DNA of 64,000 bases from an uncultured Acidobacteriota bacterium (GTDB lineage: Bacteria > Acidobacteriota > Thermoanaerobaculia > Multivoradales > UBA5704). This document shows positions 13,462 to 61,479 of this stretch, piece after piece; position 1 is the stretch's first letter, and each line of letters starts with the position of its first letter. The DNA is taken from the NCBI GenBank assembly GCA_963770895.1, contig CAVYRF010000002.1:2880001-2944000 (forward strand), given 5' to 3'. The position numbers and the translations under genes were made by a program. The notes under the pieces are model-generated. The model did no database searches, had not been told where the DNA came from, and worked only from the letters and a program-made list of their open reading frames with translations.

Positions 13462-13478
13462 AGCCCGCCGGCGGCCGC

Positions 13479-15455: not shown

Positions 15456-15656
15456 GCTCCCCCCGCGCCGTGCCGCGCCGTCCACCGGCCGGATGCCGGA
15501 TGCCCCGCCTCCACCCACCCGCGCTGTCGCTCGTCCGCTGCGATCAGTCTACTCCCGCGCGCCGTCGGCGATCGTCGCCGCCATCCGCGATCGGCCGCGA
15601 CCGTCTGCCCCTCTGGATGGCGGGCAGTTTTATTCTGAGGGCATAATCGCGGTCGC

Positions 15657-17274: not shown

Positions 17275-18114
17275 CTAGCTGTGCGTGCCCTTGAGGATCT
17301 GGACCAGCATGGTTTCGGGGGAGTTCCAGGACAGGCCGGTGATGCGGCCGATCTCTTTGTCGCCCAGGTAGACGATGCCGGTGGGCACGCCCGAAATGGC
17401 GTTTTCCTTGGCGATCGGTTCGGTGCCGAAGTGCGGCGGCAGGCCGAAGTATTCGATGTGGATGTTGGAACCCTTCAGCTGCTGTTCGACCTTGATGGCG
17501 TGCGGCACCATTTCCCGGCAGTGCGGGCACCAGCTGCCGAAATAGATGCGCAGGCGCACCGCGCGCGGCTCCTTGCGCAGCGCGGCGACCGCCGCGGCGT
17601 TGGTCTGGTAGGCGGCGGCGCGCGTTCCGTATTCGGGGTTGTGCTCGACGACTTCTTCGGCGCGGTGCAGACCGACCAGCGGCGGCGTCGGCCGCAGCTC
17701 GACGGGCTTGCCGTCCACCTTGAAGTGGACCACCTCTTCGATGAAATCGATCCCGCCCTGCTGCGCCAGCACGGCGCCGGGAAGCAGGTCGATCGAGCCG
17801 TCCGGTTTCTTGTCCACCTTCATCAGGTTCACCGTCTGGGCGGAGTTGGAAGAGGGCAGCAGCAACACCGGCGAGGTCAGCGACGACGAGATGATGAGCA
17901 TGCCGCCCACCCGCTGGCTCATGTAGATCTCGGCCGGCACCTGCTTGCCCGCGAGCACCACCACGTAGTCGCTGGTGCGGGTAAAGTCCCGCATGGCGCC
18001 GTCTCCGGGACCGGGGGAAGCGGCCTGAGCCGCGGCCAAGGTGGCAGGGCCGCCGGCGGCAAGCAAGCAGATGGCCAAGATCGCTGCGACGGTCGAGAGC
18101 TGGCGGTGGGTCAT
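17275..18114 (-). CDS. Exported thioredoxin-family protein
   Basis: Signal peptide, C-terminal FGSWCPHC and GVPT cis-Pro motif. Confidence 0.85.
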   Translation of the reverse strand: MTHRQLSTVAAILAICLLAAGGPATLAAAQAASPGPGDGAMRDFTRTSDYVVVLAGKQVPAEIYMSQRVGGMLIISSSLTSPVLLLPSSNSAQTVNLMKVDKKPDGSIDLLPGAVLAQQGGIDFIEEVVHFKVDGKPVELRPTPPLVGLHRAEEVVEHNPEYGTRAAAYQTNAAAVAALRKEPRAVRLRIYFGSWCPHCREMVPHAIKVEQQLKGSNIHIEYFGLPPHFGTEPIAKENAISGVPTGIVYLGDKEIGRITGLSWNSPETMLVQILKGTHS

Positions 18115-18124
18115 CGATTGGGCC

Positions 18125-19324
18125 TCATGAACGGTGGTGATCGGCGGCGGCGGCGCTTGCGGTCGGCAGCGGCGGCAGGCCGGAGAAAGTGGCCGTCACG
18201 CGCCCGTCCTGCACGGCGAACGAGCGGGGAAGCCGGCGATACAAAGGGCGCAGCAGCTCGGCGGGTGCTTCGGCGACGCGGAAGGCGGGACCCCATTTCC
18301 AGAAGAACGTGCGCTGGCGCGCCTCATCCGAGGCGGTCAGCACCCACACCGCCGCGGCGCCGGGCGAGCCCGCATAGGCGTTGAGCGCCGGCACCGCCTT
18401 GGCGAGCGCGTCGTCGTCGATGTCGTCGAGCACCACCATGTGATTGCCGTGGTCCAGGTCGGGCACGATGGTGTTGAGGCAGGCGCCGCCGCCGCGCGGA
18501 TCGCCGGCGCAGAGCTGGTCGACCGACGCGCCCGGCTTGAGGCGGGTGGCAAGGTCGTCGAGCGGCAGCGCCGGCGCCCGCCAGGCGAACACCACGACCG
18601 CCGCCGTGAACACCGCGACGACCAGGGTGCGCGCGGTGGGCGCCGTCCGGCGCGGCGCCGGGGCGCGGCCTCGCCAGGCCAGGAGCAGCGCCGGCACCAG
18701 CAGCAGCAGGTCCTGCCAGAAGGCCGCCGCCGGTGTGCGCTGGACCAGATTGCCAAAGCAGCCGCACGAGGCGCCGGCCGCGGTCTGGCCGTGCGCCGCC
18801 AGCCACCAGCTGCGGCCGTTGAGCGCCACGAAGAGCGCCACCAGCAGCGTCACCGGCACCAGCACCCACAGCCGCCGCAGTCCCAGCAGCAGCGCCATGC
18901 CCAGCGCCGCTTCCACCGCCAGGGCGGCAAGTGCAAAGATCTCAAAGGTTTCGGGGATCGCCGGGGCCTGTCCGCCCGGCGCTGCGCCAACGCCGCCAGC
19001 GCCGCCGGTCCCCGCGCCGCCCGCAACGGTTGCGGGCATCGCCCACGACAGCAGCCCTTCGTCCTGCAGCAGCTGGGCAAACGCATGCGGATCCAGCGCC
19101 TTGCCCCAGACCGCCACCAGCAGCACGGCGCCCAGCAGGCAGCCGCCGGCCGTGCCGAGCCATCGCCAGAGCCGCCCCGCGCCGGCACCGGCCGGCGCCG
19201 CCAGCGGGCGCAGCGCCCAATCGCGCTCGGCGCGCCGGGTGACGGACTGCGGGCGCTGGGCGGTGGCTGGGGAGGTGGCGTCCGGTGGGTTCATGGAGTC
19301 CATGCGCGGCATCTGGCGGCTCAT
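18125..19324 (-). CDS. MauE/DoxX-family membrane protein with C-terminal thioredoxin-like region
   Basis: ATG overlaps the uvrA stop (ATGA). Motifs AVWGKALDP, VEAALGMALLLG, SCGCFG, FWQDLLLL. Start may be 19294. Confidence 0.8.
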   Translation of the reverse strand: MSRQMPRMDSMNPPDATSPATAQRPQSVTRRAERDWALRPLAAPAGAGAGRLWRWLGTAGGCLLGAVLLVAVWGKALDPHAFAQLLQDEGLLSWAMPATVAGGAGTGGAGGVGAAPGGQAPAIPETFEIFALAALAVEAALGMALLLGLRRLWVLVPVTLLVALFVALNGRSWWLAAHGQTAAGASCGCFGNLVQRTPAAAFWQDLLLLVPALLLAWRGRAPAPRRTAPTARTLVVAVFTAAVVVFAWRAPALPLDDLATRLKPGASVDQLCAGDPRGGGACLNTIVPDLDHGNHMVVLDDIDDDALAKAVPALNAYAGSPGAAAVWVLTASDEARQRTFFWKWGPAFRVAEAPAELLRPLYRRLPRSFAVQDGRVTATFSGLPPLPTASAAAADHHRS

Positions 19325-22446: not shown

Positions 22447-22977
22447 TTGGATTTCGGCGCAGTGCTGGGCACCGTTGCGGTGTTTCTGACCAGCAGGAAT
22501 TGCCGTTTTGCTCTCATCGGAGGCGTGGCGCTCGCAGCCTATGGCCTGGCGCGCACGACCCTCGACCTGGATCTGCTCGTCGAGGCGGATGCTCAGGATG
22601 GCCTGATTTCCTTCCTGGAATCGCTGGGTTTTGCGACGCTCTACCGATCGACGGGTTACTCGAACCACCTTCATCCTGATCCAGCATGGGGGCGACTCGA
22701 CTGCGTGTATGTTCGCGGAGCAACCAGCGATCAGCTGTTTGCCGCCTGCCGCACCGCCGCGGTGCCCGGCGGCTTGCAGCTCCCCTTGCCGAAGCCCGAG
22801 CACCTGGCTGCGCTGAAAGTGCTGGCGATGAAAAACGATCCCGGTCGTACCTTGCAAGACATGGCCGACATCCGCTTTCTCCTCCAACTGCCGCAGGTCG
22901 ATCGTGGGGAGGTGCGGGCCTATTTCGAGAAGCACGGCCTGGTGGAGCGCTTTGATGAGATCGAACGGTTCCTCTGA
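22447..22977 (+). CDS. AbiEii-like nucleotidyltransferase
   Basis: IGGVALAAYGLARTTLDLD (GG-x-A...R-x-T-x-D-x-D) and LKVLA...QDMADI; GGAGG RBS with TTG start. Confidence 0.8.
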   Translation: MDFGAVLGTVAVFLTSRNCRFALIGGVALAAYGLARTTLDLDLLVEADAQDGLISFLESLGFATLYRSTGYSNHLHPDPAWGRLDCVYVRGATSDQLFAACRTAAVPGGLQLPLPKPEHLAALKVLAMKNDPGRTLQDMADIRFLLQLPQVDRGEVRAYFEKHGLVERFDEIERFL

Positions 22978-28601: not shown

Positions 28602-29540
28602 ATGGACAGACGACACGACGTGGTGGCCGAGCTGGAGTGGGCGAGCAAGGGGTTCGGCGCGGTCAAGGCGGTTGCGGAGCTCGACTTCGAAGTGCGGGCG
28701 GGCGAGGTGGTGGCGCTGCTGGGACCGAACGGCGCCGGCAAGACGACGACGGTGCGGCTGTTGATGGGCCTGGTGCGGCCGAGCGCCGGTGCGGCGCGGG
28801 CGTTCGGGCTGGACCCGTCAAAGCCGGCGGCGCGGATGCGGATGGGCGCCATGCTGCAGGTATCCAAGGTGCCCGAAACGCTCAAGGTGCGCGAGCACAT
28901 CGAGCTGTTTTCCAGCTACTACCCGCGGCCGCTGCCGTTTGCCGAGGTGGTGGCGGCGGCCGGCCTGGGCGGTCTCGAAGAGCGCTACTTTGGCAAGCTG
29001 TCCGGCGGCCAGCGCCAGCGGGTGCTGTTCGCGCTGGCGATCTGCGGCGATCCGCAGCTGCTGTTCCTGGACGAGCCGAGCGCGGCGCTCGACGTCGAAG
29101 CGCGGCGTTCGCTCTGGGACCGCATCGAGGCGCGGCGGCGGGCCGGCGGTTCGGTGCTGCTGACCACCCACAACCTGGAAGAGGCGGACCGCCTGGCGGA
29201 CCGCATCGTGCTGCTCGACCGCGGCCGCGTGCTGGCCGAGGGGACGCCGGCGCAGATCAAGGCGCGGGTGGCCGGCCGCACGGTGCGGGCGCGTACGACG
29301 CTCGGCAGGGCCGACCTGGAACGGCTGCCCGGCCTGCTGGCGGTGCGTCACGAGGCGGAGGAACACGTCGAGCTGCTGGCCGCCGAACCGGAGCGGCTGG
29401 TGGCGGCGCTGCTCGCCGCCGATCCGGCGCTGAGCGAGCTGGAAGTGCGCGGTGTCGGCCTGGAGGAAGCCTTTCTGGCCCTGACCTGCGGCCTGGCCGC
29501 GGGGGATGAAGCGCGGCGCGACAAGGAGGTGGCGGCATGA
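28602..29540 (+). CDS. ABC-2 exporter ATP-binding subunit (YvfR-like)
   Basis: GPNGAGKTT, LSGGQRQR, LFLDEP; GGAGG RBS. Confidence 0.92.
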   Translation: MDRRHDVVAELEWASKGFGAVKAVAELDFEVRAGEVVALLGPNGAGKTTTVRLLMGLVRPSAGAARAFGLDPSKPAARMRMGAMLQVSKVPETLKVREHIELFSSYYPRPLPFAEVVAAAGLGGLEERYFGKLSGGQRQRVLFALAICGDPQLLFLDEPSAALDVEARRSLWDRIEARRRAGGSVLLTTHNLEEADRLADRIVLLDRGRVLAEGTPAQIKARVAGRTVRARTTLGRADLERLPGLLAVRHEAEEHVELLAAEPERLVAALLAADPALSELEVRGVGLEEAFLALTCGLAAGDEARRDKEVAA

Positions 29541-30364
29541 GCTCTCAGACGGTGGTGATGAACGCCGGCGGCGTTGCCCCGGGGCCGGCCCCGGCGAGCC
29601 GGCGGCTGGCCCGGATCTACTGGCTGGAGGCGAAGTCGGAGGCGCTCAAGACGTTGCGCCTGCCGGCGTACCTGGCGCCGATGTTCGCCTTTCCGATCAT
29701 GTTCTACCTGCTGTTCGGCGTGGCGATGAACCCCGGCGCCGGGGTCGGTGGCGTGCCCATCGCCGTGTACCTGCTGGCGACCTATGGGGTGTGGGGCGTG
29801 CTGAACGTGTCGCTGTTCGGGTTCGGCGTCGGCGTCGCGGCCGAGCGCGGGCAGGGGTGGCTGCTGCTCAAGCGCTCGACCCCCATGCCGCCGCTGGCCA
29901 ACCTGGTAGGACGCTTGGCAAGCTGCGCCGTGTTCTGTGCCGCGGTGGTGGCGGTGCTGTTCGCGGTCGGCGTGACGGTAGGGCACGTGCGGCTGCCGGC
30001 GCCGACGATGCTGGCGCTGGGCGCGGTGCTGGTGAGCGGCACGCTGCCGTTTGCCGCCTTCGGTCTGGCGGTGGGCTATTGGGCGGGGCCCAACTCGGCG
30101 TCGATGGTGTGCAACCTGCTGGCACTGCCGATCTCCTTCGCCTCGGGCCTGTGGATTCCGTTCCGCATGCTGCCGCGGGCCATGCAGAGCGTGGCGCACG
30201 CCCTGCCGGCCTATCACTTCGCGCAGCTGGCGCTGGGGGTGGTGGGCGCCGCCAACAGCCAGCCCATCGCGTGGAGCCTGCTCTACCTGGGCGGCTTCAC
30301 CGTCGGGATGCTGCTCCTGGCGCGGCTGGGCTATCAGCGCGACGAAGGGCGCACGTTCGGCTGA
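29537..30364 (+). CDS. ABC-2 exporter permease (YvfS-like)
   Basis: Six TMs, ERGQGW, SGLWIP; ATGA overlap with the ATPase. Confidence 0.9.
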   Translation: MSSQTVVMNAGGVAPGPAPASRRLARIYWLEAKSEALKTLRLPAYLAPMFAFPIMFYLLFGVAMNPGAGVGGVPIAVYLLATYGVWGVLNVSLFGFGVGVAAERGQGWLLLKRSTPMPPLANLVGRLASCAVFCAAVVAVLFAVGVTVGHVRLPAPTMLALGAVLVSGTLPFAAFGLAVGYWAGPNSASMVCNLLALPISFASGLWIPFRMLPRAMQSVAHALPAYHFAQLALGVVGAANSQPIAWSLLYLGGFTVGMLLLARLGYQRDEGRTFG

Positions 30365-30396
30365 GCGGCGCGGTACCGCGGTACCATGGAGAAGCC

Positions 30397-31599
30397 ATGC
30401 GACGACTGCTGCCTTGCGACCCGCACATCGCCTGGACGCCCTACGTCTGGCTGGCCTACCTGGGTCTCTTCCTGCTGGTGCCGGCGATGCGCCACGCCGG
30501 CCCGCTGGAATGGACGCTGGACCTGATCGCGGTGGCGGTGTTTCTGGTGCTGTACTTCACCGGCTACTGGGTGTCGGGGGGGCGGCTGGTGCTGATCGCG
30601 GCGGCGATCTTCGCGATCGGCGCCGCGTTCGCTCCCAGCAATGCCAACGCCTCGGTGTTTTGCGTCTACGCCGCCGCCTTTGCCGGCCGGTTCGCGCCGG
30701 CGCGCCGCGCGCTCCAGGCCATCGGGGTGCTGGTGGCGCTGGAGGCGATCGAAAGCCTGGCGCTGCACCTGCCGGCCGACTTCTGGGTGTCCGCAATGGC
30801 CTTCACCATGCTGATCGGCGGCCTGTGCATGCACCAGGCCGAGCTGCGGCGGGCGGCCCAGCGGCTTGCCGAGTCGCAGGCCGAGGTGCAGCAGCTGGTG
30901 CGCATCGCCGAGCGCGAACGCATCGCCCGCGACCTGCACGATCTGCTGGGCCACACCCTGTCGCTGATCGCGCTCAAGGCCGAGCTGGCGGGCAAGCTGC
31001 TGGCGATCTCGCCGGAGCGTGCCGCGGCGGAGATCCGCGACGTCGAAACCGTCACCCGCGACGCCCTGCGCGAGGTGCGCGCCGCCATCGGCGGTTACCG
31101 CTCCGAGGGGCTGCCGGCCGAGCTCGCGCGGGCGCGCCTGGTCCTGGAAGCGGCCGGGGTGCGGCCCGAATATTTCATCATGCCGCTCGCCCTTCCGGCC
31201 GCGGCTGAAGCCGCGCTGGCCCTGGCGGTGCAGGAAGCGGTGACCAACGTCGTCCGCCACGCCGGCGCCGCGGTGTGCAGCATTACGCTCGAGCGCCGCG
31301 AGGGCGCCGTGCGGCTGGAGATCGCCGACGACGGCCGCGGCGGCGCCGCCGCCGCGGTGGCCGGTGCGGCCGGCGCGGGGATGGGTCTGCGCGCCATGCG
31401 CGAGCGCCTGGCGGGGCTCGGCGGCCAGTTTGAGATCAGCGCGGTCGGCGAGGCCGGCGGCACCCGTCTGGTTATCACCTTGCCATACCGCGACCCGGCG
31501 GCGGGGGTGGGCGTAAAGGCGGCGGCGGCCGAGGCCGCGGTGCGCCTGGCGGAGGCGGGAGCGGTGGCGCCTCGCCTGGCGCCGGAGCGCGCCCGGTGA
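30397..31599 (+). CDS. DesK-like membrane sensor histidine kinase (HisKA_3)
   Basis: TMs, ERERIARDLHDLLGHTLS, EAVTNVVRH, DDGRG, GMGLRAMRERL. Confidence 0.93.
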   Translation: MRRLLPCDPHIAWTPYVWLAYLGLFLLVPAMRHAGPLEWTLDLIAVAVFLVLYFTGYWVSGGRLVLIAAAIFAIGAAFAPSNANASVFCVYAAAFAGRFAPARRALQAIGVLVALEAIESLALHLPADFWVSAMAFTMLIGGLCMHQAELRRAAQRLAESQAEVQQLVRIAERERIARDLHDLLGHTLSLIALKAELAGKLLAISPERAAAEIRDVETVTRDALREVRAAIGGYRSEGLPAELARARLVLEAAGVRPEYFIMPLALPAAAEAALALAVQEAVTNVVRHAGAAVCSITLERREGAVRLEIADDGRGGAAAAVAGAAGAGMGLRAMRERLAGLGGQFEISAVGEAGGTRLVITLPYRDPAAGVGVKAAAAEAAVRLAEAGAVAPRLAPERAR

Positions 31600-32198
31600 T
31601 CCGGGTGCTGCTCGCCGAGGATCAGTCGCTGGTCCTCGGCGCCCTGGCGGCGCTCCTCGACCTGGAAGCGGACATCGAAGTGGTGGCGCGGGCGCGCGAC
31701 GGCCGCGAGGCGCTGCGCCTGGCCGAGGAGTCGGCGCCCGACGTGGTGCTCACCGACATCGAGATGCCCGAGATGAGCGGCCTGGACCTGGCCGCCGAGC
31801 TGCGGCGCCGCGGCAACCCGGCGCGCGTCGTGATCGTCACCACCTTCGCGCGCAGCGGCTACCTGCAGCGCGCGCTGGCCGCCGGCGTCGCCGGCTACCT
31901 GCTCAAGGATTCGCCCGCCGAGCGTCTGGCCGACGCGGTGCGGCGCGTGCACGCCGGTTTGCGGGCCATCGACCCGGAGCTTGCCACCTCGGCCTGGGAG
32001 GAGCCCGACCCGCTCACCGAGCGCGAGCGCCAGGTCCTCCGCCTGGCGGGCGTCGGGCTCTCCACCGCCGCCGTGGCGGGCCAGCTCCACCTGTCCGAAG
32101 GGACCGTGCGCAACTACCTGTCCGAAGCCATCGGCAAGCTGCACGCCACCAACCGCGTCGACGCCGCGCGCATCGCCCGCGACCGGGGCTGGCTCTGA
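31596..32198 (+). CDS. DesR-like NarL/LuxR response regulator
   Basis: REC domain (LAEDQ, DIEMP) and LuxR HTH (LTERERQVL...GTVRNYLS). Confidence 0.95.
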   Translation: MIRVLLAEDQSLVLGALAALLDLEADIEVVARARDGREALRLAEESAPDVVLTDIEMPEMSGLDLAAELRRRGNPARVVIVTTFARSGYLQRALAAGVAGYLLKDSPAERLADAVRRVHAGLRAIDPELATSAWEEPDPLTERERQVLRLAGVGLSTAAVAGQLHLSEGTVRNYLSEAIGKLHATNRVDAARIARDRGWL

Positions 32199-38297: not shown

Positions 38298-41200
38298 ATG
38301 CCAGACCACGGCGGGAGGCTCGCGATCGTTGTGCGGGGGACCGAGATCGTGGGCACCGACCCGCCTCGGCTTGCCCGGCAGAAGCTGGCGCGGATCACCT
38401 TGGATTCGATGGTTCAATTCGTCGGGCTGTTGGATGCGCAGGGTACGGTGCTGGAGATCAACAAGGTGGCGCTCGACGCCGTGGGGGTCGAACTCGCCGA
38501 GGTCGAGGGGAAGCCGTTTTGGACCACCTTCTGGTGGCAGGTGTCGGATGAGATCCGGGCGATCCTGCGGGAGTCGATCGCGCGCGCGGCGCAGGGCGAG
38601 TTCGTGCGCTGGGATACGGAGATCTACGGGCGCGCTGGCGGCAAGGAGACGATCGTCATCGACGCCTCGCTTTGCCCGGTGGCGGATGACGATGGCAATG
38701 TCGTGTTCATCTGTGCCGAGGGCCGCGACATCACGGCGAAAAAGGCGCAGGAGCGGGAGATCGCCGCGAAAAACGTCGAGCTGCAGGGGCTGCTCGAGCG
38801 CATTCGCGAGCTCGACGAGATCAAGACGCAGTTCTTTGCCAACGTGAGCCACGAGCTGCGCACGCCGCTGGCGCTCATCCTCGGCCCCGCGCAGCGGCTG
38901 AGTGACGACGACGGCACGATGGATCGCGCGCAGCGGCGCGAGTCGGCGCAGGTCGTGACGCGCAACGCGCGGATGCTGCTCAAGCACGTCAACGATCTGC
39001 TCGACATGTCGAAGCTCGAGGCCGGCAAGCTGAAGATCGAGCTGCAAGACGTCGACGTCGCCGCGCTGACGCGCTTCCTGGCGTCGCATTTCGCCGTCCT
39101 GGCCGACGAGCGCGGCATCGCTCTCACGGTCGACGCCGGCGAACCCTGCCCGGCGGCCGTCGATCCCGACAAGCTGCAGCGGGTGTTCATGAACCTGCTG
39201 GCGAACGCGTTCAAGTTCACCCCTGCGGGGGGCAGCGTGCGCTGCGCGCTGCAACGCTCCGCGCACGAGCTGCGCGTCACGGTCGACGATTCCGGTCCCG
39301 GGGTCGAGCCAAGTCTCCGCAAGGCCATTTTCGAGCGCTTCCGCCAGGGCGACGGCGGCAGCAATCGCAAAGTGGGCGGCACCGGGCTCGGTCTGGCGAT
39401 CGCGAAGGAGTTCGTCGAGATGCACCAGGGCCGGATCGAGGTGACGGACTCGGACCTGGGCGGCGCTCGCTTTGAGGTCATGTTGCCGCTGCACCGCACG
39501 ACTGCCGGTGCGCTGGCAGGCGCGGCCGGGCCTGAAGCCGGTGTCGCTCGCGATGTGCTCGACGGCTTGATTGCCGAGCTGCAGCCGAGCGATCCGCCTC
39601 GCGTGACCGCGCTCGCGGCCGCGGCCGCGAGCGCGACACCGGGCGCGGGCGTCCGGCCGCGCATCCTGGTGGTGGAAGACAACGCGGATATGAACCGCTT
39701 CGTCACCCAGTGCCTGGCCGCCGACTACGAGGTGATCTCCGCCTTCGACGGCGGCGAGGGGCTGGAGATGGCGCTGCGCTTCCTCCCTGCGCTCGTCGTC
39801 TCCGACATCATGATGCCGAAGGTTAGCGGCGACGAGATGGTCGCCAGGATGCGCCAGCAGCCGGAGCTGCGGCAGACGCCGATCCTGCTGCTCTCCGCCA
39901 AGGCCGACGAGGCTTTGATGGTGAAGCTGCTTGACAGCGGCGCCCAGGACTTCATTGTGAAGCCGTTTTCCGAAAGGGATCTGGCGGTGCGCGTTCGCAA
40001 CCTTGTCCTGGCCCAGCAAGCGCGGAGCGAAACTGAGCTGCAAAAGCGGCTGCTGCATTCGCTTTTCATGCAGGCGCCGGCGCTGATCGCGGTGCTGCGT
40101 GGCCCGCAGCACCGGATCGAGCTGGCCAATCCGCCGATCTGCCAGGTTTGGGGCCACACCGAGCGCGAGGTAATGGGGCGGCCGTTTTTCGAGGTGATGG
40201 CCGAGCTGGGCGACCTGGAGTTCCCATCCCTGCTCGACAAGGTGTACCGCGAGGGCACCCCGTATGTCGGCAAGGAGACCCGCGTTACCTTCGACCGCGG
40301 CGAGGCCGGCACCGAGACGCTATTCTTGAACTTCGTCTATTCCCCGTTGCGCAACGCGGGCGGCCAGATCGACGGCATCTTTGTCATCGCGTCCGACGTT
40401 ACGGAGCAGGTGGTGGCGCGCCAGCAGGTCGACGGCCTGCGCCAGGCCGCGGAAGCCGCCAGCCGCGCCAAGGACGAGTTCCTGGCGATGCTCGGTCACG
40501 AGCTGCGCAATCCGTTGTCGCCGGTGGTGACGGCGTTGGAGCTGATGAAACTGCAAGATCCGCACGGGTCGGAGCGGGCGCGGACCATCATCGAGCGCCA
40601 GGTGCACAACCTCATCCGCCTGGTGGACGACCTTCTCGACGTGTCGCGGATCGCCCGCGGCAAGGTGGAGCTGAAGACGGAAACGGTGGAGATCGCTGAG
40701 GTGCTGGCGGAGGCCATCGAGACCGCGAGCCCGCTGGTCGAGCAGCGCGCTCACACTTTGCGCGTCGAGGTGGCGGCGAGCGGCCTGAGCGTCAACGCCG
40801 ACACGACGCGGTTGAGCCAGGTGATCTCGAACCTGCTGACGAATGCGGCGAAGTACACCCCGCCGGGAGGCGAGATCGCGGTCGCGGCGGCGCGGCTCGG
40901 CGACGAAGTCGTGCTGCGCGTTCGCGACACGGGCATCGGCATCGCGCCGGAGATTTTGCCGCACATCTTCGATCTCTTCGTGCAGGATCGCCAGACCGTC
41001 GAGCGTGCGCAGGGCGGGCTGGGCATTGGGTTGACGATCGTGCGCAATCTCGTCGAGCGGCACGGTGGCTCGGTGTCTGCGCATAGCGCCGGGCCGGGGC
41101 TAGGCAGCGAGTTCGTCGTGCGCCTGCCGGCGTCCGTCGCGACCGCCGATCCAGCCGGTGCGCTCCAGGCGCCGACGGGTCCGCCAGACGCGGTCTTGCG

Positions 41201-41573
41201 CGCGGGGGCGCCGCGCGTCCTGGTCGTCGACGACAACGAGGACGCCGCGACGACGCTCGCCCAGCTGCTCGCCCACCTGGGCCACGACACGCGGGTGGCG
41301 CACGACGCGCCTGCCGCCCTGCGAATCGCCGCGGATTTTCTGCCGGATGTCGCCGTGGTCGACATCGGTTTGCCGGTGATGGACGGCTACGAGCTGGCCG
41401 CCCATTTGCGGGAGATGCCGGGCCTCGCGGACCTCCACCTGATCGCGCTCACCGGCTATAGCCAGGAGTCGGATCGTCGCAAGTCGCAGGCGGCCGGCTT
41501 TGATCACCACCTGGTAAAGCCCGTCGGCGTCGACGCCCTGGAAGCGGCGATGAGCGCCGCCAGTCGGCGCTAG
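38298..41573 (+). CDS. Cytoplasmic hybrid histidine kinase: PAS-HK-REC-PAS-HK-REC
   Basis: Two H-boxes (NVSHELRTPL, MLGHELRNPL), two HATPase domains, two REC domains (VVEDN/DIMMP, VVDDN/DIGLP), no TM. Confidence 0.93.
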   Translation: MPDHGGRLAIVVRGTEIVGTDPPRLARQKLARITLDSMVQFVGLLDAQGTVLEINKVALDAVGVELAEVEGKPFWTTFWWQVSDEIRAILRESIARAAQGEFVRWDTEIYGRAGGKETIVIDASLCPVADDDGNVVFICAEGRDITAKKAQEREIAAKNVELQGLLERIRELDEIKTQFFANVSHELRTPLALILGPAQRLSDDDGTMDRAQRRESAQVVTRNARMLLKHVNDLLDMSKLEAGKLKIELQDVDVAALTRFLASHFAVLADERGIALTVDAGEPCPAAVDPDKLQRVFMNLLANAFKFTPAGGSVRCALQRSAHELRVTVDDSGPGVEPSLRKAIFERFRQGDGGSNRKVGGTGLGLAIAKEFVEMHQGRIEVTDSDLGGARFEVMLPLHRTTAGALAGAAGPEAGVARDVLDGLIAELQPSDPPRVTALAAAAASATPGAGVRPRILVVEDNADMNRFVTQCLAADYEVISAFDGGEGLEMALRFLPALVVSDIMMPKVSGDEMVARMRQQPELRQTPILLLSAKADEALMVKLLDSGAQDFIVKPFSERDLAVRVRNLVLAQQARSETELQKRLLHSLFMQAPALIAVLRGPQHRIELANPPICQVWGHTEREVMGRPFFEVMAELGDLEFPSLLDKVYREGTPYVGKETRVTFDRGEAGTETLFLNFVYSPLRNAGGQIDGIFVIASDVTEQVVARQQVDGLRQAAEAASRAKDEFLAMLGHELRNPLSPVVTALELMKLQDPHGSERARTIIERQVHNLIRLVDDLLDVSRIARGKVELKTETVEIAEVLAEAIETASPLVEQRAHTLRVEVAASGLSVNADTTRLSQVISNLLTNAAKYTPPGGEIAVAAARLGDEVVLRVRDTGIGIAPEILPHIFDLFVQDRQTVERAQGGLGIGLTIVRNLVERHGGSVSAHSAGPGLGSEFVVRLPASVATADPAGALQAPTGPPDAVLRAGAPRVLVVDDNEDAATTLAQLLAHLGHDTRVAHDAPAALRIAADFLPDVAVVDIGLPVMDGYELAAHLREMPGLADLHLIALTGYSQESDRRKSQAAGFDHHLVKPVGVDALEAAMSAASRR

Positions 41574-41733
41574 CCCGGCTCGGCCAGGTTTTGGCAAGAC
41601 GCTTCGCCGTGGGCCCCCCGGCCCGATCGCGGTCGCGCCGCAGGCGCGCCGCGGTCGGGGCAACTCGTGCGCGGGCCGAGCCGGTTTTTCCCCTAGCGCC
41701 GCCGCAGTTTTCTCAAGCGCAGCCGTCCTCGGT

Positions 41734-41742
41734 TGCTATACT
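41734..41742 (+). promoter_or_regulatory. Extended -10 promoter element of the RiPP precursor gene
   Basis: TGcTATACT, 36 nt upstream of ATG 41779; AAGGGGG RBS-like sequence. Confidence 0.6.
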
Positions 41743-41778
41743 GCGATCTTCCGTTCACTTTCTTTAAGGGGGATTTCC

Positions 41779-41934
41779 ATGAAGAAGGAACTGCGTCCGC
41801 AGGCCCGGAAGATCACGATTGCCAAGGAGACTCTGCGCCGGATGGCAGAGGGCCAGCTGCGCGAGGTCGCGGGTGGCATCTTCACCGCGGGTGGCACGTC
41901 CTGCGGCCCGAACAACCCCTGCTACGTAGACTGA
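41779..41934 (+). CDS. Double-glycine leader RiPP precursor (lanthipeptide-like), 51 aa
   Basis: Not in the ORF track. MKKELRPQARKITIAKETLRRMAEGQLREVAGG / IFTAGGTSCGPNNPCYVD, with its own promoter, RBS and terminator. Confidence 0.8.
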   Translation: MKKELRPQARKITIAKETLRRMAEGQLREVAGGIFTAGGTSCGPNNPCYVD

Positions 41935-41978
41935 TCGGGTAGTACGGTACCAGCCCGGCACTGCCGGGTGCAGGTACG

Positions 41979-42012
41979 ACGGCGGCGCCTCTGCGCCGCC
42001 GTTTTCCATTTT
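41979..42012 (+). terminator. Intrinsic terminator after the RiPP precursor
   Basis: ACGGCGGCGC-CTCT-GCGCCGCCGT-TTTCCATTTT. Confidence 0.75.
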
Positions 42013-42038
42013 GCGCCCGGTTGGCGGCCTAGCTATAG

Positions 42039-42680
42039 CTAGAGCGCGCTGGCTTCCCGTCGCACGAAAGCAAGAAGCCCTTGTCTAAAAGCCTGGAAGC
42101 TGCCTGACCGGTTTCTTTCCGGGTCCATATGGACGGAAATATCGTGGGCAGCCTGGATCTTGGCGAGGCCTCCGGGGTGATAGCCCGCCTTGTTCAGAAC
42201 CCGTTCCAACGCCTCGGCTGTGCCACCGGCGATGGCGTCTGGGTCTCTGTAAGGTGCCCGCTGGCATAGACTCGCCGGAACTCCAGGATAGGCAGTGCAG
42301 AGCGCGGCGTTGTCGCCGAAGAACCAGGCTTCCAACTCTTCGATCGCCAGTCGATTGAGGACCTGTGGCAAGTTCATTTTCCCGGCTTGGGAGACCGTCA
42401 GGAGGCCGGCCTGGCCGGCTGCCGCTTCCAGATCGCTCTTCAAGCGTCGACAGTCCGCCTGGTCGCGATCGACGAGCACCACGACGCCCCAGCCCTCGGG
42501 GAGCCAGCGCCGATATCCACGCAACCTCGCGCCGAGATTTCGCAGAAGGTTGCTCTTGCCGGCGTGCTGGTAAATCTTGAAGGTGACTTCAGCACCCAGG
42601 ATGCGAGGCAGGAGCTGGTCCAAAGCTGTCTCGGCGGAAGGTTCCTCGACCAGGACCTCGAGGTGGGAGAGGGACGGCAT
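42039..42680 (-). CDS. DUF4276-family (TOPRIM-like) protein
   Basis: LEVLVEEPSAE, HAGKSNLL, VLVDRD, IEELEAWFFGD, NRSGSF. Confidence 0.85.
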   Translation of the reverse strand: MPSLSHLEVLVEEPSAETALDQLLPRILGAEVTFKIYQHAGKSNLLRNLGARLRGYRRWLPEGWGVVVLVDRDQADCRRLKSDLEAAAGQAGLLTVSQAGKMNLPQVLNRLAIEELEAWFFGDNAALCTAYPGVPASLCQRAPYRDPDAIAGGTAEALERVLNKAGYHPGGLAKIQAAHDISVHMDPERNRSGSFQAFRQGLLAFVRREASAL

Positions 42681-43897
42681 CAGTGGCCAGGCAGAGTCTG
42701 GCCTCCGCTGGCGCGGAGAGGATCGCCGACTTCAAAATGACCCTCCAGCCATAAGTCGCCCAGCGCGGCGCCCTGACTCATGAACGCTTCGATGCCCTTC
42801 ATGTCCGCCGCACGCCTGGCCTGCGTGAAGCCAGCTTCGTCGCGGAACAGCATCCACACCTCGGACGATTTCAGCGCGTTCACGAAAAACGGCGAGTGAG
42901 AGCTGACCAGGAGCTGCGAGCGACTCGTTGCCTTACGGCACTCCTCAGCCAACGCGGGCAGGAGTCGAGGGTGTAGATAGTTCTCCGGCTCTTCCAGCCC
43001 AATCAGCTGCGGCGGGTCGGGGTCGTTGAGAATGGTCAGGTAGGCCAGCATCTTGAGCGTGCCGTCCGAGACGTAGCGCGCAAGAATCGGCCGCTCGAAC
43101 GGGGTATCCTTGATCTGTAGCAGGAGACGCCCGTCGTCCATCACGTCGGCATTCACCGACTCAAGCCGAGGGACCCGCTGGGCGAGCGTCCTGAGGATCT
43201 GACTCAGCCGGTCCGGGTACTGTTCCTTCAGGTGCTGCACCACGTTCGGGAGGTTGTCGCCACTTGCAGAGAGGCGCTCCTGCGGGCCCGCTTCGGCCAG
43301 CCCACGAGCGCTATCGGCACTCAGGTAGGAGAGATACCAACCGGTGACGAACTTCCGCAAGGCGCTGACCCGCGGATGTTTGGCAAATTGGCCCAAGGTG
43401 CTGACGGCAATCGCTTCAGGCGAGACCAGGCGTTCGTCGACACGCTCTGCCTCCTGGTCCGGCTCCTCCCCGGATATCACCCGGCCAGCGCCCAGGTGAA
43501 AATCCAGGAACTTGAAGGGGGCGCCGAAGCTGCCCCGCTTCCATCGCAGCCATTCCTCGGCCACAACCGGGCCTTTGGAGCTCTCGTCAATGGCAAGGTG
43601 GTAGGTGATTTTGGGCCTGCCCGGTTCGCGGTATCCGAGCTCGATGATGATGGGGCCGTCAGTTCCGCGCGTGCGCAATTCCTTAAATCTCCCGCGCCGG
43701 TCCCAGGCTTTCCTCAATCCTTGGGTGAAGCATTCGGAGAGAAATGCAAACACATCGAACAGCGTGGACTTTCCGCTGCCGTTAGGGCCCAGAAATACCG
43801 TGAGGGGCGTCAGGTCCTTCAGCGTCAGGTCCCGGAGGGCTCGGTACCGCTCGACGCGCAATGATTCGATACGCGGCACCTGTTGCGAGTCAGCCAT
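42680..43897 (-). CDS. AAA_21 / ABC-type ATPase
   Basis: [12 protein letters not shown], signature VSDGTLK, Walker [17 protein letters not shown]; TGATG overlap with DUF4276. Confidence 0.9.
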
Positions 43898-44184
43898 TGC
43901 CCTCTAGCCTATCTCGTCTCGCGACGACCCGGTGGGTGCAGTGTCTCAGCGGTTGCCCCGACCTCGGCGCGCCTGCGGCGCGTCGCGATCGGGCCGGGGG
44001 GCGATGGCGGAGCGTCTTGCCGAGTGCGGACGGCGAGCTGCCGTTTGACAGCGGCGGCGGGTTCGGCTTGAATACGGGGCGCACTTGCGGACACGGCGGT
44101 ACGGCGCGCTCCGCCGATGGCTGGCACGCTGGGGCTGGGGGCGAGCGGCGATGGCTGGGCGCCGGCCAGGGGAGGGCTGAGGTC

Positions 44185-56716: not shown

Positions 56717-56776
56717 GCCGCTCAGGCCGCGGCGGCGGAGCGGCGCCAGGGAGGCGTGCGCTATCATGCTAGATCG

Positions 56777-57991
56777 ATGACAGCGCCACCCGTCTACACC
56801 AATGAAGAGCTGGAGCGGATGCTGGCTGACCTTGAGTCCGACCTGGTCGAGCGCAAGGAATCTTTCAAGGGTGACATCCCGGGAAAAGTTCGCGAGGCCG
56901 TCTGTGCATTTTCAAATGATCTCCCTGATCATCGGCGCCCTGGCGTCATAATAATCGGTGTTCGCGATGACGGTTCGCCGTCAGGGCTGCCCATCACGGA
57001 TGAGCTGCTGTTGCAGTTGGCGGACATGAAAACAGATGGCAACATATTGCCGCCGCCCTCGCTCACCGTTGCCAAGAAGGTCTTAAGGGGCAGCGACGTC
57101 GCCGTTGTGACAGTGCAGCCAGCGGACTCTCCGCCGGTTCGATTCAAAGGTCGTGTCTTCATTCGCATCAGCTCGCGGCGAGGCATTGCATCCCTGCAAG
57201 ATGAAAGGATCTTGAATGAGAAGCGCCGCTATGGCGACCGGCCCTTCGACGTACATGGTGTTCCAGCAGCCATCTTGACTGACCTTGATCACCGGAGATT
57301 CGAGGAGGAATATCTTCCGTCGGCCGTCGCCCGCGATGTCTTGGCTGCCAACGAGCGGACTCTTGAGCAGCGCCTTGCCGCCGCCAAGATGGTGGTTTCG
57401 GCGGACGAGCCGATACCGACGGTGCTCGGCATCCTGGTCCTGGGCACCCGCACGCGGGACTTCCTGCCAGGTGCCTATATCCAGTTCTTGCGGATAGCAG
57501 GTCGCGATCTTGCCGACCCTATCGTCGACGCTCAGCAGATCGACGGCGCGCTGACGGACCTGTTGCGGCTCATCGATACCAAGCTCTTGGCGCACAATCG
57601 AACGAGTGTGGAGATCAACCCCGATTCGCAAGAGCGCAGGCGATCGCTATATCCGCTTGCTGCGATTCAGCAGCTTGTGCGCAACGCTGTTATGCATCGG
57701 ACCTACGAGGCGACCAATGCCCCGATCCGAGTCCATTGGTATGACGATCGAATCGAGATCCTGAGCCCTGGGGGGCCTTTCGGCTCTGTTACAGTCAAGA
57801 ACTTTGGGCAGCCCGGTATCGCCGACTATCGAAACCCCAATCTGGCGGAAGCTTTGCGAGTCCTAGGGTATGTGCAGCGATTCGGTGTCGGTATTGCGAT
57901 CGCAAGAAGAGCGCTGGTAGAAAACAGCAATCCACTTCCGGAATTTGTAGTGGAGCAGTCGCATGTGGGCGTCATTCTAAGGATGTCATGA
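56777..57991 (+). CDS. AlbA_2 (Schlafen-like) domain plus HATPase_c_4 protein
   Basis: ESDLVERKES...VCAFSND...GVIIIGVRDDG; LVRNAVMHRTY, IEILSPGG, YRNPNLA, YVQRFGVGI; lower GC than flanks. Confidence 0.85.
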   Translation: MTAPPVYTNEELERMLADLESDLVERKESFKGDIPGKVREAVCAFSNDLPDHRRPGVIIIGVRDDGSPSGLPITDELLLQLADMKTDGNILPPPSLTVAKKVLRGSDVAVVTVQPADSPPVRFKGRVFIRISSRRGIASLQDERILNEKRRYGDRPFDVHGVPAAILTDLDHRRFEEEYLPSAVARDVLAANERTLEQRLAAAKMVVSADEPIPTVLGILVLGTRTRDFLPGAYIQFLRIAGRDLADPIVDAQQIDGALTDLLRLIDTKLLAHNRTSVEINPDSQERRRSLYPLAAIQQLVRNAVMHRTYEATNAPIRVHWYDDRIEILSPGGPFGSVTVKNFGQPGIADYRNPNLAEALRVLGYVQRFGVGIAIARRALVENSNPLPEFVVEQSHVGVILRMS

Positions 57992-58983
57992 TGAATACGA
58001 TAGCATTCTTCAATAATAAGGGTGGTGTCGGCAAAACCACTCTTGTTTATCATCTGTCATGGATGTTTGCTGATTTGGGAATCAAGGTGTTGGCGGTCGA
58101 TCTTGATCCGCAGGCTAACCTGAGTGGCATGTTCCTGCCCGACGAGAAAATCGAGGCATTGTGGCCTGAGGGCGAACACCCCAATACGGTGTATGGCGCG
58201 ATCCGGCCACTGTTCGACGGGACCGGCGACGTGGCTTCGCCGCATGTCGAATCGATTTCCGACAAGCTGTACCTCCTCGTTGGTGATCTCGATCTGGCGG
58301 ACTCGGAAGATGAGTTGGGAAGCCAATGGCCGGAATGCCTGGACCGGAAGCCGCGGGCCTTTCGAGTTCTTTCGACGTTCTGGCGCGCTATCGAGGCGGC
58401 TGCCGTAGCTCGCCAGGCGAATCTGGTGCTTATCGACGTCGGCCCCAACCTGGGAGCTATCAATCGCGCCGCGCTGATTTGCGCGCGGCATGTCGTGATC
58501 CCCTTGGCCCCGGATATCTTCTCTCTGCAGGGCTTGAAGAACCTTGGGCCGGCGCTGCGGCGCTGGCGAGAGCAGTGGCGGGAGAGGCGCGACCGTAATC
58601 CTCTGCCGGCTTTATCTATCCCGCCGGGTGAGATGACACCTGCCGGATACATAGTACTGCAGCATGCCGTGCGGTTGGATCGGCCAGTGAAGGCCTATCT
58701 CCGCTGGATGGGGCGAATCCCGGGTATCTATCATCGGGCTGTGCTCGACCAGATGGACACGCCTTCCGATCTGCGCGTGCAGGACGATCCACATCGCCTC
58801 GCTGCGCTCAAGCACTATCGGAGCCTGATGCCTCTGGCCCAGGAGGCTCGTAAGCCGATGTTTTTTCTCACTTCAGCCGATGGTGCCATCGGTGGACATG
58901 CCAAAGCCGTACAGGATTGCTATCGCGACTTCAGCGACCTCGCCCATAGTATCGCCAAGCGTTGTGGTGTGGCCTTGCCTTGA
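57988..58983 (+). CDS. Orphan ParA/Soj-family ATPase
   Basis: FFNNKGGVGKTT, VDLDPQANLS, LIDVGPNLGAINR; ATGA overlap; lower GC. Confidence 0.9.
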   Translation: MMNTIAFFNNKGGVGKTTLVYHLSWMFADLGIKVLAVDLDPQANLSGMFLPDEKIEALWPEGEHPNTVYGAIRPLFDGTGDVASPHVESISDKLYLLVGDLDLADSEDELGSQWPECLDRKPRAFRVLSTFWRAIEAAAVARQANLVLIDVGPNLGAINRAALICARHVVIPLAPDIFSLQGLKNLGPALRRWREQWRERRDRNPLPALSIPPGEMTPAGYIVLQHAVRLDRPVKAYLRWMGRIPGIYHRAVLDQMDTPSDLRVQDDPHRLAALKHYRSLMPLAQEARKPMFFLTSADGAIGGHAKAVQDCYRDFSDLAHSIAKRCGVALP

Positions 58984-59070: not shown

Positions 59071-61479
59071 TCAGGCGGCGGTGCGGCGCAGGACGTCGAA
59101 CAGGCGGTCGATGTCCTGCTGGTCGTTGTACAGGTGCGGCGCGATGCGGATGGAGTCGCCGCGGATGCTGACGTGGACCCTGGCGTCGCGCAGCGCCTGG
59201 GGCAGGGCGGCGGCAAGGCCGCCGCGCGGGCGGACGCCGATCATGTGGGCGGAGCGCTCCGCCGCCGGCAGGATGCCGTAGCCCAGGTCGGCGGCGTGCT
59301 GCGCGGCGCGGTCGGTGAGCGGCTTGAGCGCCGCTTCGATGGCGGGCACGCCCCAGGCGAGCAGCTGGCGCAGGGCGGCGATCGCCATCGGCGCCAGGAC
59401 GAACTGGGGGAACTCGCCCATGTCGAAGCGGCGGGCGCCGGGGCGGTAGGCGTCGGTGTACAGCGTGAGGCTGGAGAAGTCTTCGCTGCCGGCGCGCGCC
59501 AGCCACGAATGCTCCAGCGGCACGCCGGCGTTGCGCCACCTGGGGGCGGCGTACAGGTAGCCCAGGCCGTAGGGGCCGAGCAGCCATTTGTAGCCGACGG
59601 CGACCAGGAAGTCGGGTTGCACGGCGGCCAGGTCCAGGACGCCGGCGCCGAGAAACTGGCTGGCGTCGACCACCAAGGCGGCGCCGACGGCGCGGGCGCG
59701 GGCGCCGACCGCGGCGAGATCGACCCTGCTGCCGTCGGTCCAGTGGCAGGGAGGCACGGCGACGATCGCCGTCCTGTCGTCGATGGCGCGCAGCAGGGCG
59801 GCGGTCCAGCTCTCGCCGTCCTGGCGGAGCGCCGTCACCACCTGCCCCTGGCGCTTCTGGGCCAGCTCGCGCCACGCGTACACGTTGGACGGGAACTGTT
59901 GATCCAGCACGACGATGGTCTGGCCGGCGGCGCAAGGCAGGTTGGCGGCGGCGACCGCGATGCCGTAGCTGGCGGCGGGCACCAGTGCCACGCCGTCGGC
60001 GTCTGCCCCCATGACCTGCGCCGCCAGGCCGCGCAGCTCTTCGGCGCCGGTGAACCACTCCGCCGACGACAGGCGCCAGGGCGCCGCCTTGGCCCTGACC
60101 GCATCCAGGCCCGCGGCGGTCACCGCCCGCAGCTGCGGCGCCATGTTGGCGCAGTTGAGGAACGTCACGCCGTCGGGGATCTCAAACAGGCCGCGGGCGG
60201 GAGCCAGGACCGCCGACGCCGACGCCCGCGCCGACGAGGCGGGCGGCCCAGCCGCGCCGGACGCCGCGCCGTCGGCAGCGACGGTTGCGCCGGGTGCGGC
60301 GGTGCCGGCCGGCACGGCGACGCGGGCCGGCTGGGTGATCGCCTGGTTGATGGCGGCCAGGCAGCGGTCGATCTCGTCTTCGGTGTTGTAGAAATGCGGT
60401 GCGATGCGCAGGCGGCCGGCGCGCGCGGCGGTGACGATGCGCTGCTCCAGGAGCCGGTCGACCAGGGTCTGGGCGGCGATCGTGGGATGGGTGGCGGTGA
60501 CGATGCCCGACGTTTCGCCGGCACGGCGCGGGGCGGCCAGCCGCAGGCCGCAGGCGGTCAAGCCGGCGGCGGCGCGCTCGGCCAGGGCCAGCACGCGTGC
60601 TTCGATGGCGGCGGCGCCGGCGGCCAGCAGCAGGTCGAGCGAGCCGCCCAGGCCGTGCACGCCGTAGGTGTTGAGGGTGCCGCTTTCCAGCCGCTTGGCG
60701 CCGTCCGCCCAATCGACGTCGAATTCGGTCCACGCCAGCATGTCGCGCATCGAGCGCCAGCCGCTGCGGGTCGGGCGCAAGCGCTCGATCACGCGGTCGG
60801 ACACATAGAGCAGGGCGATGCCCTCGGGGCCGAGCAGCCATTTGTGGGCGGAGGCCGCGGCGACGTCCACCAGGTCGCGCTCCACGTCGAAGGCCAGGGC
60901 GCCCAGCCCCTGGATGGCGTCCACCACGAACAGCGCATCCGCCGCGCGGCAGGCGGCGCCGATGCGCGCCAGGTCGTGGCGGAAGCCGGTCGCGTACTGC
61001 ACCCACGACAGGGCCACCGCGCGGGTGCGTCCGTCGATGGCGGCGACGACCTCCGCCGGGTCGATGCGCCCCTCCCGCTCCGCCACGACGCGGTATTCCA
61101 CGCCGCGGTCGGCCAGGTGCATCCACGGATAGACGTTGGATGGAAAGTCGCCGGCGGCGCCGACCACGTTGTCGCCCGGCCGCCAATCCAGCCCCTCGGC
61201 CACCGCCGACAGCGCGGTGGAGGTGTTTTCTACGAACGCCACCTCCTGCGGCCGCCGCGCGCCCAGCAGGCGCGCCCCGAGCGCCCGCACGCGCTCCGCC
61301 TCGTCGTTGCGCTGCGGCCACTGGCGATCGCCGGACGCCGCGACCGACGCCGCCAGGGCGCCCATCCTTTGGGCGGCGCGCCCGGCGAGCGGACCGATGC
61401 CGGCGTGGTTCAGGTAGAACCACTGGCGGGTGACCGGGAACTCATCTCTCCAGGAGGCGATCGCGTCGGTTGGCATCAT
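59071..61479 (-). CDS. Tandem fusion of two class-V PLP aminotransferase (NifS/SufS/kynureninase-like) domains
   Basis: Domain 1: YLNHAG, VDAIQG, SAHKWLLGP, RIAPHFYN. Ala-rich linker. Domain 2: FLNCAN, VDASQ, GYKWLLGP, RIAPHLYN. Confidence 0.88.
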   Translation of the reverse strand: MMPTDAIASWRDEFPVTRQWFYLNHAGIGPLAGRAAQRMGALAASVAASGDRQWPQRNDEAERVRALGARLLGARRPQEVAFVENTSTALSAVAEGLDWRPGDNVVGAAGDFPSNVYPWMHLADRGVEYRVVAEREGRIDPAEVVAAIDGRTRAVALSWVQYATGFRHDLARIGAACRAADALFVVDAIQGLGALAFDVERDLVDVAAASAHKWLLGPEGIALLYVSDRVIERLRPTRSGWRSMRDMLAWTEFDVDWADGAKRLESGTLNTYGVHGLGGSLDLLLAAGAAAIEARVLALAERAAAGLTACGLRLAAPRRAGETSGIVTATHPTIAAQTLVDRLLEQRIVTAARAGRLRIAPHFYNTEDEIDRCLAAINQAITQPARVAVPAGTAAPGATVAADGAASGAAGPPASSARASASAVLAPARGLFEIPDGVTFLNCANMAPQLRAVTAAGLDAVRAKAAPWRLSSAEWFTGAEELRGLAAQVMGADADGVALVPAASYGIAVAAANLPCAAGQTIVVLDQQFPSNVYAWRELAQKRQGQVVTALRQDGESWTAALLRAIDDRTAIVAVPPCHWTDGSRVDLAAVGARARAVGAALVVDASQFLGAGVLDLAAVQPDFLVAVGYKWLLGPYGLGYLYAAPRWRNAGVPLEHSWLARAGSEDFSSLTLYTDAYRPGARRFDMGEFPQFVLAPMAIAALRQLLAWGVPAIEAALKPLTDRAAQHAADLGYGILPAAERSAHMIGVRPRGGLAAALPQALRDARVHVSIRGDSIRIAPHLYNDQQDIDRLFDVLRRTAA

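Follow-up and report, generated by a model that had tools for sequence, protein, structure and literature searches.

A lone small gene for a plausible double-glycine RiPP precursor with a conserved, lanthipeptide-like core

A small open reading frame (ORF) in the stretch of DNA analysed here (64 kb, hereafter the window) encodes a 51-residue peptide precursor made up of a leader ending in Gly-Gly and a short core containing Thr, Ser and Cys. The reading that we favor, held tentatively and at slightly less than an even chance, is that this is a functional monocistronic precursor gene for a secreted and modified peptide, most likely a small lanthipeptide with a conserved core, which is matured and exported in trans. 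An initial annotation of the same DNA had taken the ORF for one member of a dispersed library of precursors. Its view of a real gene with a double-glycine leader and no maturation genes nearby is borne out below, but its view of a library member with a variable core is not. The features of the gene and its immediate surroundings are as follows.

38298-41573, upstream of the peptide gene: PAS-rich hybrid histidine kinase gene, with PAS domains from about residue 24 of the protein.
41575-41689, forward strand: compound hairpin followed by U5, found by folding, a likely terminator of the upstream kinase gene.
41734-41742, forward strand: possible extended -10 element, TGcTATACT, by our own reading of the sequence.
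41766-41773, forward strand: Shine-Dalgarno-like site, AAGGGGGA, 5 nt upstream of the ATG, read from the sequence.
41779-41934, forward strand: small ORF, 51 amino acids, MKKELRPQARKITIAKETLRRMAEGQLREVAGG followed by IFTAGGTSCGPNNPCYVD.
41779-41877, forward strand: leader, 33 codons, MKKELRPQARKITIAKETLRRMAEGQLREVAGG, with IxIxKx5M and then L-15, M-12, Q-8, L-7, V-4 and GG.
41878-41934, forward strand: core, 18 codons and the stop, IFTAGGTSCGPNNPCYVD.
41947-42013, forward strand: intrinsic terminator with hairpins at 41947-41977 and 41978-42003, one directly after the other, and then a T-rich tail, from a terminator scan and folding.
42039-43897, reverse strand: candidate anti-phage defence pair HEC-01, downstream of and convergent with the peptide gene.

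The small ORF is a real, self-contained gene, since its coding score is positive in this frame only, it has a Shine-Dalgarno site and a terminator, and homologues of the same length exist. With a codon-usage score trained on 12 long window genes, the frame reaches +9.9, and the values for the remaining five frames of that stretch range from -12 to -60. Its GC3 is 0.84. The per-codon score was reached by two of the 145 window ORFs of 40-70 codons, the ORF itself being one of those counted, and at 0.19 it is below the 0.33-0.56 of five long genes used for comparison. The ORF, the Shine-Dalgarno-like site and the terminator together confirm the complete small unit that had been described initially, with its 33-residue leader and an 18-residue core holding two Thr, one Ser and two Cys.

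Folding of the 3′ region of the ORF gave z = -3.3, with none of 200 shuffled sequences folding as well. The second hairpin (41978-42003), which has an 11-bp GC-rich stem and is followed by TTTTCCATTTT, was the only terminator-like site found by a simple scan of 41400-42400. That scan did not list the hairpin between the kinase gene and the peptide gene (41575-41689), which has a minimum free energy of -73.9 kcal/mol and z = -2.0, with four of 200 shuffles as good. This hairpin likely ends the kinase transcript and keeps it apart from the peptide unit. As the kinase gene has its own hairpin and U5, the small gene is probably transcribed separately, which makes it plausible as a transcription unit of its own. 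A scan for sigma-70 consensus promoters in the region around the ORF found no sites, and by eye no good -35 hexamer was seen 16-18 nt upstream of TGcTATACT. A start of transcription is proposed near 41749. Two imperfect repeats bracket the peptide unit, a 37-nt direct repeat with 70% identity (41565-41601 and 41945-41981) and a 23-nt inverted repeat with 83% identity (41635-41657 and 41977-41999). Both lie in GC-rich hairpin regions, so they may have arisen by chance.

The ORF belongs to a very small family. A search of 1.84 billion representative proteins without a length limit returned seven matches at E <= 1e-3, five of which were small proteins of 49-56 residues aligned from end to end (E 8e-26 to 4.8e-4). 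The other two were long, repetitive proteins of 1350 and 629 residues (E 2.2e-5 and 6.1e-5) in which the leader-like stretch was matched many times over; these were judged spurious, and no credible fused or longer form of the family was found in that search. Profile searches of a 5.8 billion-cluster collection returned 11 clusters besides the protein of the window, which gives a family of 12 members, all 49-65 residues long. The homologues share the MKKEL start and the same length, and the start is M-[KEQ]-K throughout when a probably mis-called N-terminal extension in P0010 is set aside. The closest relative (P0001) is 96% identical, with two conservative changes in the leader and none in the core. 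Across the 12 members M1, K3, K16-E-T-L-R20, L27, T36, G39 and C48 are invariant, and G32, G38, S41 and C42 are present in at least 90%. Every source that gives these proteins a name calls them hypothetical.

Among 185,579 species genomes, two sequence patterns (MKKEL[RG][LPS]Q[ANV] and [IV][ATS]KETLRRM), which are blind to relatives with KETLRRL, KETLRQL or KETLREL such as P0013, matched 61 stretches, one of which passed tblastn. This was ribosomal protein L10 of a Gracilibacteria metagenome-assembled genome, a chance match and no true relative. P0013 itself sits on an NCBI record of 8,777,251 bases, and the longest contigs listed for P0004, P0012 and P0007 measure 124,491, 85,414 and 37,813 bases. 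A tblastn search of plasmids returned four records (best E 0.4), none of them credible, and among the papers listed in non-exhaustive literature searches none printed KETLRRM, KETLRRL, KETLRQL or KETLREL.

The leader carries I12-x-I14-x-K16-x5-M22 and ends in G32-G33. IxIxKx5M is a conservative form of LxLxKx5L in which Ile and Met replace Leu, and P0003 has LxLxKx5L exactly; with these substitutions the window leader follows the LxLxKx5L motif through to its closing Gly-Gly. Passages of Walker 2020 (PMC7268733) describe the LxLxKx5L leader for class I LanAs of Bacteroidetes, where it often ends in GG and a C39 protease is encoded in the cluster. Counted back from the first Gly-Gly, 11 of the 12 members have Leu at -15, Leu or Met at -12, Leu at -7 and Val, Ile or Ala at -4, followed by GG (nine members), AG (one) or GA (one) at -2/-1. 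Position -8 in these members is Glu (five), Gln (four) or Gly (two). The twelfth member, P0013, has a two-residue insertion and is off this register. In excerpts of PMC6363468, C39 domains are described as having a Leu-12/Glu-8/Leu-7 consensus, together with a hydrophobic residue at -4 and GG, GA or GS at -2/-1, with Val-4 as well as Leu-7 and Leu-12 making contacts in the groove. With M-12, Q-8, L-7, V-4 and GG the window leader conforms to the double-glycine pattern of C39 and PCAT proteins, and, judged from its residues, the leader pattern is the recognition pattern of C39 peptidase domains. A structure predicted by AF2 from the 12-sequence alignment has helices at residues 16-21 and 24-30 at low confidence (pLDDT 60.8); the model is compatible with a helical leader, and nothing further is drawn from it.

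Profile models place the leader close to those of class I lanthipeptides. The only NCBIfam match was NF038153 (lant_leader_L1a, "class I lanthipeptide"; E 5.9e-4), in which residues 9-33 aligned with profile positions 8-32 of 32; at 19.9 bits against a curated cut-off of 22 this is a near miss, the mark of a relative that is not filed as a member. Of the eight family members tested, five also matched this model at E <= 1, the lowest E being 4.3e-4, and none of the eight was shown above its 22-bit cut-off. TIGR01847, the general model of bacteriocin Gly-Gly signals, did not match at E <= 10, and neither did any other RiPP leader or precursor model in NCBIfam or Pfam; searches of both collections gave no match to leader models of the Nif11 or NHLP type, and Pfam returned nothing at all for the precursor at E <= 10. 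In a language-model search of the ESM Atlas the top match was an unnamed cluster of 56 members (score 0.90, 176 shared features), whose commonest phylum is Myxococcota, on three records. The next two clusters, both "class I lanthipeptide leader" (PF28317, Lant_leader_dom), scored 0.89 and 0.88, and among the matches listed for the 30 nearest clusters just one further Pfam family appeared, the type-A lantibiotics (PF04604, 0.82); matches to named clusters below 0.9 serve as leads only. These leads and near misses are consistent among themselves and with what the motifs show, which suggests that the leader is related to the class I lanthipeptide leaders of Gram-negative bacteria and would work like them.

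The core is as conserved as the leader: over 66 pairs its mean pairwise identity is 0.51, against 0.53 in the leader. Its common scaffold is x-x-T-x-G-G-x-S-C-x(2-5)-C-x-x-x, where exactly three residues follow the last Cys in 11 of the 12 members and the conserved Cys are spaced by three to five residues in the members that have two. The core thus contains Ser/Thr donors together with Cys acceptors, and P0007, which has the fewest hydroxyl residues, retains just two Ser/Thr and two Cys, all at conserved positions. To form two thioether rings, a core requires two donors and two acceptors. The lanthipeptide-type set of Ser, Thr and Cys that had been pointed out in the core is therefore present and conserved in the family, but the cores are not variable in the way that had been proposed, given an identity of 0.51 against 0.53.

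A second Gly-Gly (G38-G39) follows six residues after the first, within an invariant T-x-G-G, perhaps a ring hinge or else a further site of processing. As a C39 site the second Gly-Gly was rejected, with Thr36 at -4 and Gly33 at -7, neither of which is hydrophobic, and with TG in one member. At the DNA level, an exact 11-nt direct repeat within the ORF, CGCGGGTGGCA (41868-41878 and 41886-41896, forward strand), encodes both Ala-Gly-Gly runs, six codons apart, of which the second Gly-Gly is conserved in the family. It could be either an old 18-nt duplication or mere codon choice.

No candidate for a maturation or export gene was found within the window. Codon scoring called 51 genes; 52 proteins were scanned against Pfam and 20 of them against NCBIfam, and a further 128 open stretches of at least 170 residues in six frames were scanned against Pfam, for a total of 180 open frames. 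At E <= 1e-5 none of the 180 frames in the 64 kb matched Pfam families for LanB, LanC, LanM, radical SAM, YcaO, DUF692 or peptidase C39. For LanB and LanC this means no match to PF04738, PF14028 or PF05147, and for the C39 exporter no match to PF03412. The 20 proteins run against NCBIfam gave no match of a maturation type, and the 128 remaining open stretches contained no Pfam family at all. This agrees with the earlier statement that the 64 kb hold no LanB/C/M, radical SAM or C39 gene. The ABC genes of the window encode an ABC-F protein, an ABC-2 exporter, an NMT1-type importer and a LolCE-like permease, the last of which points to a diderm cell. The ABC-2 exporter (ATPase and permease) is part of a four-gene module at 28620-32195 on the forward strand together with genes for a histidine kinase (HisKA_3) and a response regulator of the LuxR type. 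This module is generic and lies about 10 kb from the peptide gene with unrelated genes between, and no link to it was found.

Relatives of the gene were also searched for within the window. The leader pattern given with the initial annotation and a looser one, both run on the window only, recovered the ORF itself and no paralogue, and a leader HMM run over 967 six-frame segments of the window recovered the ORF alone (E 6.9e-20, next E 0.1). A stretch at 43964-44041 (forward strand), before succinate dehydrogenase-like genes, matched the full-length family HMM at E 0.009 and was rejected as a chance match; this GC-rich intergenic frame lacks both a start codon and KETLR, and its DNA aligns with that of the peptide gene at a score of 21, no better than shuffled sequence (mean 21.0). 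The proposal of a dispersed library with variable cores is therefore not supported, as the window has a single copy of the gene and the core is as conserved as the leader, the reverse of what prochlorosins show. We regard a library of the prochlorosin kind, with many paralogous leaders and hypervariable cores served by one promiscuous enzyme, as highly improbable. It would account for a peptide gene that stands alone, and prochlorosin precursors are known far from their LanM according to part of the text of PMC7268733; for P0002 and for P0010 alike the longest contig listed has 4,809 bases, and the two may share one contig. The core conservation contradicts it, as nearly equal identities (0.51 and 0.53) and a fixed Thr/Gly-Gly/Ser-Cys/Cys scaffold are not those of a variable-core library, nor does one expect from a library one copy in 64 kb, a tiny family (11 clusters among 5.8 billion) or a leader outside the Nif11 and NHLP types.

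Under the favored reading of a small lanthipeptide matured in trans, the helical leader would dock a LanB-type dehydratase and a LanC cyclase encoded beyond the 64-kb window. Thr36 and Ser41 would be dehydrated, and perhaps Thr40 as well, after which Cys42 and Cys48 would add to the dehydrated residues, forming two thioether rings, from 36 to 42 and from 41 to 48, that interlock. Export would be through a C39-peptidase ABC exporter together with a membrane-fusion protein and an outer-membrane factor, as fits a diderm cell, and the exporter would cut after Gly33 and release the 18-residue product. Several observations stand against a lanthipeptide, namely an NF038153 score under the cut-off, the empty Pfam result, Atlas scores below 0.9 and the lack of enzymes in the 64 kb, and the conserved Cys pair could simply form a disulfide. 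Since Thr36 and Ser41 are conserved too, a plain disulfide is not a sufficient explanation.

That disulfide is central to an alternative in which the peptide is not modified at all and acts like a class II bacteriocin or a signal, its leader serving C39 cleavage and export only and its 18-mer closed into a loop by Cys42-Cys48. The full C39 recognition pattern of the leader, the two conserved Cys with a short spacer of variable length and the absence of modification enzymes from the 64 kb all suit such a peptide, and the bacteroidetocins are described in parts of PMC10352776 and PMC6671954 as unmodified Gly-Gly leader peptides of Gram-negative bacteria. We nevertheless consider it unlikely, as it leaves unexplained the invariance of Thr36, the near-invariant Ser41 directly before Cys42 and the specific likeness of the leader to lanthipeptide leader models. 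TIGR01847 gave no match at E <= 10, an exporter is absent nearby just as the enzymes are, and the adjacent kinase would be an unlikely receptor for a peptide signal. A modified product need not be a lanthipeptide, however. Sections of PMC10352776 report that Gly-Gly leaders in Bacteroidales also serve radical SAM, YcaO and LanM enzymes as well as unmodified peptides, and therefore the chemistry cannot be read from the leader alone. Another RiPP chemistry on the same type of leader, such as a radical-SAM thioether or the work of YcaO or of an iron oxidase that modifies Cys, with the genes for these enzymes at other loci, would sit well with those clusters, with the NF038153 match below the cut-off and with an unnamed cluster as the top Atlas match (0.90). 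It is quite unlikely in our estimate, given that models for other RiPP leaders or precursors gave no match at E <= 10, that the named look-alikes among the Atlas matches listed are lanthipeptide leader families only, and that no radical SAM, YcaO or DUF692 domain was found within the window.

A more skeptical account is that the ORF is an orphan relic left after the loss of its cluster, or is spurious or not expressed. Partner genes are absent nearby, the ORF lies at the edge of a defence island of lower G+C, its per-codon score falls short of those of the five long genes (0.19 versus 0.33-0.56) and a consensus promoter was not found. Against this, the ORF, its Shine-Dalgarno site and its terminator are intact, the 96% identical P0001 differs by two conservative leader changes and by none in the core, and start, length and key residues are preserved throughout the 12 members, so we rate this account as very unlikely. 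The boldest reading, which we consider distinctly improbable, is that this family would be the first class I-type lanthipeptide system to encode a conserved-core precursor routinely as a unit of its own, far from LanB, LanC and the exporter, in a high-G+C diderm outside Bacteroidota, or else that its leader recruits a kind of enzyme not yet described. If such an enzyme were involved, T-x-G-G could be a second processing site, yielding a 12-residue product, TSCGPNNPCYVD.

The genes around the precursor offer no evident partner. By a reading of its sequence, the upstream hybrid kinase was judged to have no N-terminal membrane segment, which makes it an unlikely peptide sensor or receptor. Downstream, the convergent HEC-01 candidate pair consists of genes for an ATPase of the AAA_21/AAA_15 type (PDLC04182, E 1.4e-162) and for a protein with DUF4276 (PDLC04202, E 4.9e-86). 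The G+C content of this pair (0.60-0.64) is lower than that of the window (0.707), which suggests that it is probably an acquired island with the peptide gene at its border. Other defence-like or mobile element-like genes include a Schlafen AlbA_2/HATPase_c_4 protein followed by a ParA-like ATPase (56756-58980, forward strand) and a short AbiEii-like fragment (22447-22974, forward strand). In searches for RNA genes the window gave neither an Rfam family at the gathering score nor a tRNA.

Three further loci in the window encode enzymes or redox proteins. At 12274-17144, a gene for an acyl-CoA oxidase lies on the opposite strand between those for a LuxE-like acyl-protein synthetase and a LuxC-like acyl-CoA reductase, an arrangement that looks like a pathway of the fatty-aldehyde or alcohol type. 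A thioredoxin-like protein adjoins a MauE/DoxX-like membrane protein assigned to the BT_3928 family at E 2.1e-15 (17278-19324) on the reverse strand, and the two may be a thiol-oxidoreductase pair. On the same strand at 59074-61479, an 802-residue protein contains two class-V aminotransferase (cysteine desulfurase-like) stretches and a kynureninase-like match at residues 423-659, an unusual fusion.

As it stands, the ORF is a plausible but ordinary orphan RiPP precursor gene. If the peptide is matured in trans, the gene would exemplify class I-type precursors of Gram-negative bacteria that are unlinked from their enzymes; non-exhaustive literature searches turned up no report of an unlinked class I precursor. 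Mining based on clusters, covering a few genes around LanC, would then miss this peptide family; the span used by Walker 2020 is given in passages of that paper as seven genes on either side of LanC (PMC7268733). The small conserved core, with two donors, two Cys and a Gly-Gly hinge, is also a compact scaffold.

Three groups of known systems invite comparison. With the double-glycine peptides cut by C39 domains, such as ComC/ComA, the substrates of LahT and class II bacteriocins, the family shares residues that are hydrophobic at -4, -7, -12 and -15, a Glu or Gln at -8 (9 of 11 members), GG, GA or AG at -2/-1 and a leader predicted, with low confidence, to be helical; it differs from them in that TIGR01847 is not matched at E <= 10 and a transporter gene is absent nearby. 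Prochlorosins and cyanotins, which are dispersed class II precursors with leaders of the Nif11 type that depend on ProcM, likewise have precursors unlinked from the modifying enzyme, but the window gene has a leader of another family, is present in the window as a single copy and has a core as conserved as its leader. The nearest likeness is to the class I lanthipeptide precursors of Gram-negative bacteria, which include the pinensin family, Ped15 of Pedobacter, thalassomonasin of Thalassomonas and viridisin. Class I lanthipeptides with double-glycine leaders are established in Bacteroidota and Gammaproteobacteria, and according to parts of PMC9680876 the viridisin precursors were shown to be modified by LanBC enzymes. 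Their leader motif and Gly-Gly end are shared by the window precursor, as is a short core with Ser/Thr upstream of Cys, and the relevant models are NF038153 and PF28317. In the excerpts available of these descriptions the precursors are clustered with their enzymes, whereas the window gene stands alone, scores below the NF038153 cut-off, lies in DNA of 70.7% G+C, unlike those named systems, and belongs to a family with an xxTxGGxSC..C core that goes unnamed in all sources that give names.
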